64,000 nucleotides of DNA from Blastocatellia bacterium. GTDB taxonomy: Bacteria > Acidobacteriota > Blastocatellia > RBC074. Position 1 is the first letter of the stretch. The number at the start of each line of letters is the position of its first letter. Shown here in pieces: positions 10,652 through 15,671 of this stretch. The notes beneath the pieces were generated by a model. The model ran no database searches and was not told where the DNA came from. It worked only from the letters and a program-made list of their open reading frames with translations. Made by a program: the position numbers and the translations under genes. The stretch is taken from positions 1,892-65,891 of the forward strand of contig JBGAPB010000001.1 in the NCBI GenBank assembly GCA_044221525.1, given 5' to 3'.

Positions 10652-10972
10652 ATGGAAGCTTTGGGAATGATCGAATGTCATGGCCTTGTGGCGATGATCG
10701 AAGCCGCGGATGCAATGGTCAAAGCCGCCAACGTCAAATTGGTAGGCTGGGAAAAAGTTGATGCCGGGCTGGTTACCGCCATCGTGCGCGGCGAAGTTGG
10801 CGCGGTTAAAGCCGCAGTCGAAGCAGGAGCCGCCGCCGGTCGCAGAGTCGGCGAAGTGGTTACCACCCACATCATCCCGCGCCCTCACGGCGAAGTTGAT
10901 GAAGGCTTGCCCGTGTTGCATACCGGTGAAACCACGCGAAAGCCGATCAGTGGATCAGTCAACCCATCCTGA
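10652..10972 (+). CDS. Bacterial microcompartment shell protein, BMC-H (PduA/EutM/CcmK family)
   Basis: [79 protein letters not shown] is a near-canonical BMC domain. Confidence 0.8.
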
Positions 10973-11099
10973 TCGGCTTGTTTGATGTGGTGCTCTCTTG
11001 TTTGTGTAATTGTAGGCTGGCCAATGCTTGAGATAGCGTGTCTTCGCTAATTGCCCGGTAACCGACCACGAACAAAAGGCAAACCAGAGTCTTCGACTA

Positions 11100-11375
11100 C
11101 TAAGCAGTGCGGAAAATGCCTATTTTCAGAAGGCTTTCCACGTCATTTGCCTCAACAATATTCAACGGCCGGTCGCCTGAAAAAAAGTATCGTTTTCTTG
11201 ATGCTAACCCACGCACCACAATCGGTTTTTCCTGAAGATAACGCAGGCGCGTCTTATCAGTAGAGCCAGATTGCTCTGGCTTTGAATCGCTTGTAGTAGG
11301 CTGAGATGGGCTAACCGTTGTCGTTTGTGCTTCCGCGCTCTTGAGCGCTTGTCGTTTCTGGCCGCAACAACTCAT
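11100..11375 (-). CDS. Hypothetical small protein
   Basis: ORF with GGAGAGG SD 5 nt before the second ATG (MSCCGQ…); overlaps the 3' end of the DUF1360 gene by about 65 nt in another frame. Confidence 0.25.
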   Translation of the reverse strand: MSCCGQKRQALKSAEAQTTTVSPSQPTTSDSKPEQSGSTDKTRLRYLQEKPIVVRGLASRKRYFFSGDRPLNIVEANDVESLLKIGIFRTA

Positions 11376-11727
11376 ATTGAACCTCTCCATTTTGAAAATC
11401 GGAAATTGGTTGAATCACCGCAGATTCCTGGCTGATGCGTTCTAAAAGGCAAGCTGCGCCTGAAATGGCGAGCAAGACAAATAGCAATTCCACTGGCTGT
11501 CTCGTGACATAAAAAGCCATGGGCGCTGCCACCCATAAGCTCAGGCATTTGAAGCAATCCATCAGCTTGCCCCAAAACCCTTCACCTAACCACAGTCGGA
11601 AACGAAAAACGACATCCCCAGGACCATCCTCCTTGGAGAATAGATGAGTAAGTCGCCATGTTGCGAGGACTGCCAAAATAAAGTTAATTGCTGTCACTTT
11701 TTCGGGCATCAGCAGGTCTTGTGGCAA
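11311..11727 (-). CDS. DUF1360-like small membrane protein
   Basis: WRLTHLF…DGPGDV… and DCFKCLSLWVA motifs with two TM helices. Confidence 0.55.
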   Translation of the reverse strand: MPQDLLMPEKVTAINFILAVLATWRLTHLFSKEDGPGDVVFRFRLWLGEGFWGKLMDCFKCLSLWVAAPMAFYVTRQPVELLFVLLAISGAACLLERISQESAVIQPISDFQNGEVQYELLRPETTSAQERGSTNDNG

Positions 11728-11858
11728 TAAACAAAACTATACAAAACAGGCTGATCCTAACGGTTTGGAATGATACCGTTAGGACAGCCAAGAGCGCTTG
11801 CCTTACTGTTGGTGCTGGTGAAAAATCCTTTCTAAGACCTACCAGCACCAATGGTTGT

Positions 11859-12323
11859 TTACGGCATAACGTAAATGCATGGGCCTTTGCAGTAAGCGCC
11901 AATGCCAATAGGTTTGCCATTGCAATCAAGGAATGCTGCCGTGATGCAAAGGCAATACAAGTCACCACAATCTTGAGGTGAGTCCGGGCATTTGAAGCAG
12001 TCTGAGGGGAAGTTAAATGTGACCGACGGTTTGTCGTTATTACACAGATTGAAATCAATCGTCTGACACTTTTTACCTTCCGGCGCGTTACCGCAAGATT
12101 CCCAAGCGAGACATACACAGATCTTACCGCACAACAATCGTTTGAGATCGCTGCTGCCGGAAAAATCAAATGTGATGGTCGCCGAGGACGCCTCGTTACA
12201 ACGGATGATGGTGGATGGCTCACGACCGGTTCCTGCAAAGAAATCGGCCTTGAGTGAAGCTTTGAGATCAACACACATTTGTGGCGGAAACTCAAGATCG
12301 CATTCGAACGGTACCATGGACAT
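11859..12323 (-). CDS. Cysteine-rich protein (17 Cys in 154 aa), no signal peptide, unknown function
   Basis: Strong AAGGAGG SD 7 nt upstream of ATG; the overlapping 203-aa ORF in another frame is Arg-rich and looks spurious. Confidence 0.5.
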   Translation of the reverse strand: MSMVPFECDLEFPPQMCVDLKASLKADFFAGTGREPSTIIRCNEASSATITFDFSGSSDLKRLLCGKICVCLAWESCGNAPEGKKCQTIDFNLCNNDKPSVTFNFPSDCFKCPDSPQDCGDLYCLCITAAFLDCNGKPIGIGAYCKGPCIYVMP

Positions 12324-12629
12324 TTTCAGACCTCCTTAAGGATGATTAAAGGTTTTCCTGGCAAAATGAGTTTGTTACTTTCAATATGCCAAGGCTGTCG
12401 CAAGTCCGACATATGACTTGACGAAAAGAACTATAAGGAAGCCCGATTAGGCCGTAGTTTATTGTTACTTAATTCAAAAATTTTTTTGATTAAGCAAAAC
12501 ATCGTAGCGATCAATTTTTCTGAAGTGATTTGTAGTGCGTAGGTTTGAGCCTGATTACAAAGAGCTAAAATCCCATTGATATAGCTGAATAAACAGCAAT
12601 CTCCATTCAGTGATTTTACAATTACCAGA

Positions 12630-13631
12630 TCAAAGGACTTGAAGTAGTGGCACCTCAATATGATTCCAGATTGGTTGAACGTCCCGGATAGTAGTAAGAA
12701 TTCTAAGTTGATAGGTTCCAGGTGGGAGTGTAATTGGAGCTAGGTTGGCCATATAAAAAAATTCGTTTTCTTCCAGGGAATCTGGCTGTGAGGCACCAAG
12801 CCGAATGGGTGTATAGGTCAATAAATTGATTGCATGGAAGACCGCACCAAATTCCAAGCTTTTCTTTGTTGCCTTGGCCGCTCCCAAGCCAGTAACTTGA
12901 AAGGAGGCAGTAAGCGAAAACGGTTCCTCTGCTTTTATATACCCCGAAACGGCATGGTGTTGAGTAAAAAGTTCTTGTGGTTGATTAGTCGAAGGTGGCT
13001 GTAGCACCTGAATTCCAGTGATCTCAATGTTTACCGGTGATGATACTGCCGAAACCTCAGTAGAGAGAGCTTCCGTAACAGGTGAATCTTCTTCAGGAGT
13101 AGTTGTTACTTTTTTGCCCAATCGCTTCAACATCCATTTGCAGGCTTCATCGGTTTCAATCCCCGGCCAGCTTGCCTGTTCTTCGGTTTCCATGTGCTGA
13201 ATGCCGGTACGATGCTCTACCTTGGTGCGTTTTTCCTCCTTGCCGCCGACATTTTTGCGCTCGAAACAAACCACGAAATTGGCAAAATCACTCCATTCTT
13301 TTGTCGTCTTGGGTGCGGCGGAAACTTTTTCCGGTTTTGCTTTTGTTGGCGGAGTACTTTCTGGTGCTGATGCTGAGGATTCTTCCGCCAATTCTCTGGC
13401 GCGAGCAAGAATCGGTTCAAGCTCTTCGATTGATATAACTTCACCTGTTTGTTTGCCGCGCGCTCGGATTTTTTGAGCTGACAGCTTTGCAAGATCGGCA
13501 AAGGTATATACCTTCAATGATTCTCGTAACCATTGTTCCAGGGCTTTGCTGACGCCAGGAATGATGGTGAGATTGTCGGTTTTCTGAAGGTCTTCTTGTG
13601 GCGGAATATCGCTTTTTGGGTTGGTTGCCAT
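12630..13631 (-). CDS. Hypothetical protein: HhH-like N-terminus, acidic Ser/Pro linker, beta-rich C-terminal domain
   Basis: GGAGAGA SD; N-terminal IIPGVSKALEQWL…FADLAKLSAQKI is helix-hairpin-helix-like. Confidence 0.5.
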   Translation of the reverse strand: MATNPKSDIPPQEDLQKTDNLTIIPGVSKALEQWLRESLKVYTFADLAKLSAQKIRARGKQTGEVISIEELEPILARARELAEESSASAPESTPPTKAKPEKVSAAPKTTKEWSDFANFVVCFERKNVGGKEEKRTKVEHRTGIQHMETEEQASWPGIETDEACKWMLKRLGKKVTTTPEEDSPVTEALSTEVSAVSSPVNIEITGIQVLQPPSTNQPQELFTQHHAVSGYIKAEEPFSLTASFQVTGLGAAKATKKSLEFGAVFHAINLLTYTPIRLGASQPDSLEENEFFYMANLAPITLPPGTYQLRILTTIRDVQPIWNHIEVPLLQVL

Positions 13632-13781: not shown

Positions 13782-15131
13782 CTAAGCAGATTGCCTGCGT
13801 CTGATTTCGTCGAATAATTGCATGGTTTCTTTGCTTGGCATTATGTTGAGGTCGCGAATCAGGTTTTCGCGGCAATTATGGAATTGACGCAGCGCCAAGT
13901 GCGCATATCCCATCAAGTTGTAACATTGCATTAGCCGACGATGTAGCTCTTCGTTACAGGAATCCACAGCCAGCGCTTTGGAGCACATGGTTACGCACGT
14001 TTCGTAATTTTTCTGATCGAAGTAATAGCAGGACAGGCGATTCATCACGGCCAAATATGTGTCCTGATAGTTTTGTCTGATTGAAACCAGCCATTCCTCA
14101 TAACGATCCTCGACTAAAAACTCGCCCTGATAAATTGTTTCAGCCGCACGATATTCACGAATTGCCGCAGCCTGTTCTCCACGCGCCTCGCATTCTTTTG
14201 CCTTTTGAACGTGTGTTAAAAATGCTTCGGAATCAACCCAAATGTTGGCTTCCGGGTTGAGCAGATAACAGTCATCCTGAAATAGCACATAAGAAAAAGA
14301 GGTATTCACCTTGTTAAGTGATTTGCGCAGGCCATAGATAGCCACATTCAAATTGTTCCTGGCGGCGTCCGGGTCTCCTTCTGGCCAGAAGGCTTCCATT
14401 AAGACTTCTTTGGGAATGGGGCGTTGGCGATGTGTCACCAGATATTTGAAGATTGACTTACCCTTGCAATTTGGCCAGCCAATCACCGGTTGCTCGTCAA
14501 GAAGCACGCGGAATGGGCTTAGAAAGTAAACGGCGAGTGATGGGCGATTTATGGATTGGCTGTCGTCCGTCTCTTCGATGAATGTATCAGGTGTTTCAGT
14601 GTTGGCATTGGCAACCTGAACCACTGGTTGTTCGACGGCTCTTTCCACAACTGGTTTAGGGATTGGTGAAAAAGTTTTTGAATTTGGTGCAGGCCCCAGC
14701 AGGTCCTTAATACACTGCACAAGCCGTTCATACTTGGCAAGGTTGGCATTGAAAGGCTGGCTCAGGTCATTGTTGGAGCCATGAAGTAGATACTTATTGT
14801 TTTTGCCTCCTTCAGTTGGAGGGCTGATCATCTCGATTAGGGCATTGAGTTCCTGTAACAACTTAAGTTGTCGAAGGCTTGCTTTGGAATAAGCATCTCT
14901 GTGCCACTCGACTTCATCCCAGGCGCAACAACAAGCTCTGGATATCCGATAGGCTGCATCAATCATGCAAGCCAGGGATTCATTTCCTGAAAGTTCGCAA
15001 CTTGAACGAACTTCGTTAAGAAGTTCCGCGATGGCTTCATAGCGATAAGTTTTCGGCGCTTCTTCGTCCTTATGTCGCTGCAACGAAGTTTCAATGGTTG
15101 AGTCGGGGGGAATGTTATCTATGGCTATCAT
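13782..15131 (-). CDS. SARP-family (OmpR-like winged helix plus BTAD) transcriptional regulator with about 200-aa unknown N-terminal domain
   Basis: FRVLLDEQPV…LMEAFWPEGDPDAARNNLNVAIYGLRKSL winged helix, followed by a BTAD-like helical repeat region. Confidence 0.65.
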   Translation of the reverse strand: MIAIDNIPPDSTIETSLQRHKDEEAPKTYRYEAIAELLNEVRSSCELSGNESLACMIDAAYRISRACCCAWDEVEWHRDAYSKASLRQLKLLQELNALIEMISPPTEGGKNNKYLLHGSNNDLSQPFNANLAKYERLVQCIKDLLGPAPNSKTFSPIPKPVVERAVEQPVVQVANANTETPDTFIEETDDSQSINRPSLAVYFLSPFRVLLDEQPVIGWPNCKGKSIFKYLVTHRQRPIPKEVLMEAFWPEGDPDAARNNLNVAIYGLRKSLNKVNTSFSYVLFQDDCYLLNPEANIWVDSEAFLTHVQKAKECEARGEQAAAIREYRAAETIYQGEFLVEDRYEEWLVSIRQNYQDTYLAVMNRLSCYYFDQKNYETCVTMCSKALAVDSCNEELHRRLMQCYNLMGYAHLALRQFHNCRENLIRDLNIMPSKETMQLFDEIRRRQSA

Positions 15132-15622: not shown

Positions 15623-15671
15623 CAAAGATAAAGACGGTAACAGAGACTCTCTATTACCGTCTTTATCTTTG
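15623..15671 (-). terminator. Perfect 18-bp-stem hairpin 18 nt downstream of the patatin gene stop
   Basis: caaagataaagacggtaa cagagactctcta ttaccgtctttatctttg. Confidence 0.45.

Follow-up and report, generated by a model that had tools for sequence, protein, structure and literature searches.

The stretch analysed here, which we call the window, comprises 64,000 nucleotides of contig JBGAPB010000001.1 from a Blastocatellia bacterium of the phylum Acidobacteriota (assembly GCA_044221525.1), and all coordinates below are those of the window. An open reading frame (ORF) on its minus strand (11859..12323, ATG to stop) is predicted to encode a protein 154 amino acids long that contains 17 cysteines (11.0%). 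We refer to this ORF as the Cys gene and to its product as the Cys protein. The gene is part of a cassette of co-oriented genes that runs from a SARP/BTAD regulator through a gene we call mid, the Cys gene and a DUF1360-like gene to a small gene with an MSCCG start. The same order was found in every locus of the clade of close relatives (at least 49% protein identity) in which it could be judged. The features of the locus are as follows.

11859..12323, minus strand: Cys gene, recognized from its ORF, homologues, purifying selection and a structural model
13782..15131, minus strand: SARP-type activator, 449 aa (Pfam BTAD, 6.3e-23; Trans_reg_C, 4.6e-7)
12630..13631, minus strand: mid protein, 333 aa, conserved beside the family gene
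11311..11727, minus strand: DUF1360-like small membrane protein (Pfam PF07098, 5e-6; orthologues)
11100..11390, minus strand: small protein, 91-96 aa (orthologues)
12430..12493, minus strand: predicted operator and promoter, from a conserved repeat and -10 pattern
12324..12429, minus strand: predicted leader (5' untranslated region) of ~100 nt with three hairpins
11749..11851, minus strand: two long stem-loops directly after the stop codon of the Cys gene (minimum free energy -56 kcal/mol, z = -5.3)

The cysteines of the Cys protein are at residues 8, 17, 42, 65, 69, 71, 77, 86, 94, 109, 112, 119, 124, 126, 134, 145 and 149, and their spacings include CxC (69/71 and 124/126), CxxC (109/112), CxxxC (65/69 and 145/149) and CxxxxC (119/124). 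In 53 long, non-overlapping ORFs of the window the median cysteine content is 0.7% (mean 1.2%) and the next-highest value is 4.5%, which places the Cys protein far outside the background. A Shine-Dalgarno sequence, AAGGAGG, is located at 12331..12337 on the minus strand, 7 nt before the ATG, and the spacer upstream of the gene is 306 nt long with 36% GC compared with 51% for the whole window. The N-terminus of the protein, MSMVPFECDLEFPPQMC..., is acidic and has no hydrophobic h-region. Inspection and a Kyte-Doolittle scan, on which this verdict rests rather than on SignalP, revealed no signal-peptide-like stretch in any family member. These results agree with an original prediction, made by a model that read the letters of this DNA, of a 154-aa protein with about 11% cysteine, no signal peptide, a strong Shine-Dalgarno sequence and cysteines gathered in the C-terminal two thirds in CxC, CxxC and CxxxxC spacings.

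A second frame of 203 aa (11684..12295, minus strand), which the original prediction had also seen, overlaps the Cys gene. We regard it as almost certainly wrong that this frame is the real gene, or that the Cys ORF arose by chance. The window and its two closest relatives (loci L020 and L011, 94% protein identity) have no stop in the 203-aa frame, but it contains 4-7 stops in L002, L013, L006 and L008, and the 154-aa protein has about 200 homologues. Nucleotide differences from L020 and L011 cluster at codon position 3 of the 154-aa frame (44 of 53 and 35 of 47, respectively), with synonymous to non-synonymous codon changes of 39:10 and 32:10. This pattern indicates that the Cys ORF is a real gene under purifying selection in the 154-aa frame. 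Given these substitutions and the disruption of the longer frame in relatives, the 154-aa frame is therefore predicted to be the expressed one, and expression of the 203-aa frame, named in the original prediction as an outcome that would count against it, is rejected along with a chance ORF.

A search of 5.8 billion proteins with the Cys protein returned only six clusters, 49-94% identical, all annotated as hypothetical and all from metagenomes or metagenome-assembled genomes (MAGs). A profile search of 1.84 billion representatives yielded 78 relatives at E<1e-3 and a second profile search added 112 clusters. The family numbers ~197 sequences, none of which is named or has a Pfam domain. The window protein matches the full-length hidden Markov model (HMM) of the family with 191 bits, and we provisionally describe the family hallmark as ...LCGxWCVxVxxES(I/C)GPGPE...PC...CGxxY...VT...D.CG.P..I.G.C.... 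Carriers named in the records are Blastocatellia/Acidobacteria, Chloroflexi/Anaerolineaceae and Pseudonocardiales/Actinomycetota MAGs; all carriers (Acidobacteriota, Chloroflexota, Actinomycetota and others) are uncultured. Pfam (E<=10) and NCBIfam gave no match for the Cys protein, and Pfam none for 36 family members. The original prediction had recognized no family, and these searches concur. PADLOC and PHROGs gave no match for the Cys protein, mid or the small protein, and sequence-profile searches of the PDB returned only noise (E above 0.1).

Many distant members (P0049, P0053, P0057, P0122-P0125, P0129 and P0132) have low-complexity N-terminal extensions of 70-120 aa with Tyr/Pro/Lys/Asp/Glu repeats (e.g. 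YPEKDYPEKGYPEK), and some distant members have acidic C-terminal tails. Two loci with a syntenic Acidobacteria-type cassette carry other labels: L006 (GCA_022615665.1) is filed as the archaeon 'Nitrososphaera sp.' and L020 (CAZMXG010000160.1), with DNA ~78% identical to the window, as 'Heliomicrobium sp.'. Both contigs are probably mis-binned.

An AlphaFold2 model built from 36 sequences shows a beta sandwich of eight to nine strands (pLDDT 87.4, pTM 0.78). Foldseek matched it to generic Ig-like sandwiches only (probability ~1.0, TM score 0.45-0.55, identity 7-15%, root-mean-square deviation 4-7 A). These include the ester-bond adhesin repeats 8fha/8f90, the Wzt carbohydrate-binding domain, ApaG and the arrestin N-lobe, which have the overall sandwich topology in common with the Cys protein but no functional site and are mostly extracellular, so that the resemblance is at the level of fold only. 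As judged from the model, the Cys protein is a cytoplasmic, stand-alone, single-domain Ig-like beta sandwich of an undescribed family.

To compare the cysteines across the family, the ~197 members were aligned to the family HMM. Twelve cysteines (C8, C17, C42, C65, C69, C77, C94, C112, C119, C126, C134 and C145) are invariant in the clade. Across the family the number per protein ranges from 0 to 20. Four of them, C65, C69, C94 and C119, each occur in 66-74% of members and in most members are jointly kept or jointly lost, as would be the case for a generic Cys4 protein in which they form a unit. Sixty-one members carry the tetrad and no other core cysteine, 32 add C8 and C145 to it, and 37 lack all core cysteines. 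By contrast, ten other cysteines of the window protein are each found in 2-25% of members. The all-or-none retention of the tetrad predicts a cooperative site, either a Cys4 metal site or two disulfides, and the former appears likelier given the predicted cytoplasmic location, in which structural disulfides are unlikely. Strong enrichment in cysteine is seen in several separate branches (20 in P0037, 19 in P0028 and P0082, 18 in P0061), a distribution indicating that it arose repeatedly. P0028 is fused at its C-terminus to a plastocyanin/azurin-type copper-binding domain (PF00127, 2e-9).

Next to the family gene, across phyla, is a gene for an activator. In the window it is predicted to encode a Cys-rich helical N-terminal domain, an OmpR-type winged helix-turn-helix (wHTH; residues 226-276) and a BTAD domain (299-444). 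The proximal 190 nt upstream of the Cys gene have 72% mean column identity across eight loci and are better conserved between alleles than the coding sequence. This region contains three repeats followed by a -10 element.

12487-12493, minus strand: repeat TTAATCA
12466-12472, minus strand: repeat TTAAGTA
12444-12450, minus strand: repeat CTAATCG
12430-12435, minus strand: -10 element TATAGT, invariant as TAnAnT across loci

The repeats start 21 and 22 nt apart and an 8-nt spacer leads to TATAGT. The pattern TTAA-N17/18-TTAA-N17/18-YTAA-N11-TANNNT occurs once in the 64-kb window (0.00 expected in shuffles) and lies shortly before the family gene in 20 loci, among them the distant L015 and L018 (TTAATTn repeats, TATTCT); it was also seen by eye in a Chloroflexi (Anaerolineaceae) locus, L032. 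A scan for sigma-70 consensus promoters found none on the strand of the Cys gene, which fits an activator-dependent promoter that has no -35 element. In published SARP sites, heptamers are repeated directly with spacers of 4-15 nt and overlap the -35 region, and the proximal repeat lies 8 nt before the -10 (PMC10972967, PMC11301090). An OmpR-type wHTH plus BTAD regulator and phased repeats with the proximal one 8 nt from the -10 are both present here, so the predicted promoter is of SARP-type architecture. Because the repeat geometry fits the published sites, we infer that the Cys-gene promoter is activated by the SARP protein of the cassette, whose main or sole local target would be the Cys gene. 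The original prediction had pointed to the AT-rich upstream region as a putative promoter, and a conserved SARP-type operator, a -10 box and a structured leader were indeed found there.

This arrangement is similar to that of AfsR-afsS, ActII-ORF4 and DnrI in Streptomyces, where the regulators also combine an OmpR-type wHTH with BTAD and the targets also have heptamer-like direct repeats on one face of the DNA, 14-15-nt spacers, 8 nt to the -10 and no good -35. Unlike the Streptomyces SARPs, the regulator here is carried by Acidobacteriota and Chloroflexota and has an additional helical, Cys-rich N-terminal domain of 200 aa; the candidate sites are TTAAnnn in AT-rich DNA, and the target is one small protein gene rather than a biosynthetic cluster. 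With 3.3% cysteine, the regulator is among the most Cys-rich proteins of the window. Residues ~40-75 of its N-terminal domain are Cys-rich in the Acidobacteria clade (SCE...LAC...RACCCAW, 5-9 cysteines), and counterparts from Actinomycetota have 0-3 cysteines.

Between the promoter and the start codon, the predicted leader is conserved in 10 Acidobacteria loci. Its third hairpin pairs CCUUUA with UAAGG of the Shine-Dalgarno sequence, which is thereby partly sequestered. When 10 distinct sequences were aligned on the model, 88% of cells paired compared with 26-50% in slid controls, and double changes occurred at 9 of 22 pairs compared with 4.2 in shuffles. The z-score of the single sequence is only -1.9. 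A covariance model found only the Acidobacteria loci used to build it, indicating that the leader is limited to this clade. Rfam returned nothing real in 11000..13000 of the window. The pairing data are suggestive of a conserved leader RNA structure.

At the other end of the gene, the second of the two stem-loops, GGCUGUCCUAACGG...CCGUUAGGAUCAGCC (11749-11789), has a 15-bp stem, with a U-rich tract after it. Its sequence is kept in L020, L002, L013, L006 and L001 and extends to loci whose coding regions share only ~50% identity, and L011 has compensatory changes. The second hairpin is likely to be a terminator or 3' stabilizer; viewed more broadly, it may act in termination, RNA stability or protein binding. 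From these elements, the Cys gene looks like its own, tightly controlled transcription unit that is probably highly expressed.

The cassette is not confined to close relatives. It is kept in L015, L016 and L018, where the family protein is only 20-32% identical and where two of the loci hold a second family copy. In Actinomycetota MAGs, only the family gene and an adjacent BTAD regulator are retained. Of 57 loci sampled from metagenomes, 40 could be judged for mid, which is the immediate neighbour of the family gene in 20; a BTAD gene stands directly upstream in 11 of 36. A soil subgroup whose members have five cysteines carries the family gene alone or in tandem arrays; in its metagenome loci L054, L058, L041 and L061, two or three family genes are in tandem and neither BTAD nor mid is on the contig.

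The mid protein begins with a region that weakly resembles a helix-hairpin-helix (HhH), and its central domain is conserved. Its C-terminal beta domain lacks cysteine and is related to the family. Neither Pfam nor NCBIfam gave a match for mid or for the small MSCCG protein. The relationship was established through a bridging sequence, the mid orthologue of L077, whose C-terminal domain matches the family HMM with 37.7 bits and retains a LESIGPGEE hallmark. The more diverged C-termini of Acidobacteria mid proteins align collinearly with the family in hhalign but weakly (probability 9%). Judged by the L077 sequence, mid ends in a domain paralogous to the Cys-protein family.

The DUF1360-like protein probably starts at the ATG at 11709 and has an invariant DCF.CLS.W motif, that is, a CxxC at a predicted membrane segment. 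It also has a weak match to phage family phrog_781, in which no function is assigned. The small gene overlaps the 3' end of the DUF1360-like gene, and its probable start is the second ATG at 11375. Its N-terminus, M[SG]CCG[QNK]KR, is conserved even among cassettes with 20-30% identical family proteins (L005, L011, L015, L016 and L018).

Comparison with other loci showed that the cassette is a mosaic. Outside ~11100..13000 the window DNA is 88-98% identical to L002 and L005, whereas inside this interval identity to these loci is only 45-80% and identity to L020 and L011 is 82-93%. Protein identities with the window were:

Regulator (C-terminal 240 aa): 98% in L002, 82% in L020
mid, N-terminal part: 83% in L002, 68% in L020
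mid, C-terminal domain: 53% in L002, 74% in L020
Cys protein: 52% in L002, 94% in L020
DUF1360 protein: 73% in L002, 87% in L020
Small protein: 71% in L002, 81% in L020

The Cys protein of L002 is closest to that of L008 (74%). Because identities within the block reverse relative to the flanks, it appears that the C-terminal domain of mid and the Cys, DUF1360 and small genes were swapped between lineages as a unit. This argues for co-evolution of the exchanged parts and for unusual selection on the locus.

Our tentative reading, possible rather than probable, is that the 17-cysteine protein is an inducible metal or thiol binder. The SARP protein would bind the three repeats and substitute for the missing -35 contact; the Cys gene would be strongly expressed only on a SARP signal, and the leader would gate translation further. 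The Cys4 site (C65, C69, C94 and C119) would hold the protein together, most likely by binding Zn or Fe. The Acidobacteria clade would then have gained ~10 more cysteines, many of them in CxC pairs on one face of a strand, a placement that, like the clustering of the cysteines, was read from the strand register. Such an inducible, thiol-rich protein could bind or buffer soft metal ions (Cu(I), Zn, Cd) or thiol-reactive compounds. Its paralogous partner mid would probably act with it, and the CxxC membrane protein and the CC small protein might do so as well.

Several observations weigh against this role. The regulator does not belong to the usual metal-sensor families (MerR, ArsR, CsoR), and no metal transporter is consistently linked to the loci examined: P-type ATPase and Feo genes are near L032 and CutA1 is 4 kb away in the window, but neither link is conserved. 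Further, 31 of the ~197 members lack cysteine altogether, which makes Cys richness a clade-specific trait. Some of these Cys-free proteins, such as those of the Anaerolineaceae locus L032 and of L076, L082 and L088, occupy the same activator-family-paralogue cassette, so that the basic job of the module needs no thiols. The original prediction had proposed a metal-binding or redox protein and had made this depend on homologues keeping the conserved cysteines. At the level of the family they do not, as the 31 Cys-free members attest. The 12 cysteines invariant in the clade and the tetrad that is all-or-none across the family speak for metal binding, as do the repeated cysteine enrichment in separate branches and the copper-binding domain fused to P0028. 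The proposal is possible and not established.

Known Cys-rich metal binders offer partial parallels. Like the Cys protein, the cytosolic copper storage proteins Csp1 and Csp3 (DUF326, PF03860) are small and more than 10% cysteine, and Csp3 also has no signal peptide. The thiols of Csp proteins store soft metal, and the proteins are four-helix bundles with cysteines lining the core. Unlike Csp, the Cys protein is modelled as an all-beta sandwich with no Pfam match (E<=10), and its metal binding is a prediction; we did not place it in PF03860. The bacterial metallothioneins SmtA/BmtA (PF02069) are inducible, cytoplasmic and Cys-rich with CxC and CxxC spacings, as predicted for the Cys protein. 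They are ~55 aa long, have a zinc-finger-like fold and are regulated by ArsR/SmtB repressors. The Cys protein differs in its length of 154 aa, its predicted beta sandwich, its SARP activator and the lack of a Pfam match, and it was likewise not assigned to this family of ~55-aa Zn4 cluster folds. If the metal-binding sandwich is real, it would be a third structural solution for bacterial cytoplasmic metal buffering, after metallothioneins and Csp helical bundles, and would occur in abundant uncultured phyla of soil and sludge.

The main rival reading, which we consider rather unlikely, is that of a self-assembling structural protein. The sandwich and its paralogous partner would build a coat, inclusion or nucleoid-bound layer, intracellular or envelope-associated, in a SARP-controlled developmental or stress programme, with surface cysteines cross-linked by disulfide or metal bridges as in CotY/ExsY. 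The presence of two paralogous domains in one cassette, the tandem arrays of family genes in 5 loci and the many members with Tyr/Pro/Lys/Asp-rich N-extensions or acidic tails, typical of material-forming proteins, are consistent with such a role. So are a dedicated activator, a strong Shine-Dalgarno sequence and a strong terminator, which suit burst expression, a cassette without an enzyme, and Cys-free members. CotY/CotZ/ExsY (PF10612) proteins are made in the cytoplasm and self-assemble with cross-links, and DUF1360 proteins occur in Bacillus too. Like the Cys protein they are ~150-160 aa long with ~10% cysteine and no signal peptide, a resemblance in size, composition and location that favours assembly. 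However, the Cys protein has no sequence or Pfam relation to CotY/CotZ, and membership in PF10612 was rejected since neither the window protein nor 36 family members matched Pfam. The carriers belong to non-sporulating phyla and are not known spore formers, the paralogous domain of the partner has no cysteine in the window, and disulfide cross-linking is unfavourable in the cytoplasm.

It is improbable, in our judgement, that the Cys protein is instead a regulatory partner that senses redox state or a ligand and, by binding either the SARP activator or the HhH-like partner, modulates transcription through feedback. Activator and family gene are tightly kept as a pair, the sole part of the cassette retained in Actinomycetota MAGs, and the N-terminal domain of the regulator is Cys-rich in the clade (RACCCAW). 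Cysteine counts of the family protein and the regulator are correlated (rho 0.45-0.62), but equally so for the DNA-binding half of the regulator, and we dropped this correlation as evidence because it is phylogenetically confounded. The strong Shine-Dalgarno sequence, promoter and terminator suggest an abundant product, not a stoichiometric regulator, and a family subgroup has no BTAD gene nearby (one in only 1 of 8 long metagenome loci and none in L031 or L033). Far less credible is a ribosomally synthesized and post-translationally modified peptide (RiPP) precursor with a Cys-rich core, an idea that the original prediction had raised. A high cysteine content in the C-terminal two thirds would suit it, but conservation extends over the full 154 aa, which fold as one confident domain (pLDDT 87), Cys-free homologues are present in the same cassette, and no radical-SAM, YcaO, lanthipeptide synthetase, protease or exporter gene was found in any locus examined. 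We rejected it on the lack of maturase genes in these loci and on the conserved, folded whole length.

Going beyond the binding of metal or thiols, a broader and doubtful proposal is that activator, stand-alone sandwich and HhH-linked paralogue constitute an unrecognized, phylum-spanning module that forms a two-component cytoplasmic assembly, possibly tethered to the nucleoid via the HhH-like domain. The Acidobacteria subunit would then be a new class of thiol-rich beta sandwich for metal storage or cross-linking, and the cassette block would be exchanged allelically, implying diversifying selection.

The SARP and phased-repeat regulatory logic and the fold class are known already. None of the resources searched describes the protein family, its cassette or a beta sandwich containing 11% cysteine, and the literature yielded nothing relevant on the Cys-protein family, DUF1360, DUF4332 or the combination of SARP, cysteine-rich and Acidobacteria. 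Independent of the metal question, this work defines a new family of ~200 sequences that is without annotation anywhere. It also provides a compact module from outside Actinobacteria, under predicted SARP control and with a candidate operator that is easy to read. The module is a tractable system for SARP activation in Acidobacteriota and Chloroflexota, and the allelic block exchange suggests unusual selection at the locus.

The flanks of the cassette vary by lineage. In the window they include genes for a patatin-like protein, BMC-H, TauE and a two-component pair, and elsewhere PMT_2, Metallophos and GT2. The BMC shell gene, TauE and CutA1 were rejected as parts of the system, as the flanks are lineage-specific. 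PADLOC models of anti-phage defence gave 0 matches to 6 cassette proteins at E<=0.1. The BMC-H shell gene (10652-10972, plus strand) has a Pfam BMC match of 3e-29 and an EutM-like score of 124.9 bits, below the NCBIfam cut-off of 133. There is no further BMC paralogue in the 64-kb window. In L002-L005 and L011 the gene adjoins the cassette; in other lineages it does not. On the other side of the cassette, between a patatin-like gene for 1094 aa and the downstream SARP gene, there is a 49-bp near-perfect palindrome (15623-15671) with 24-nt arms that are 96% complementary and 1 nt between them; it is conserved in L002 and L005.

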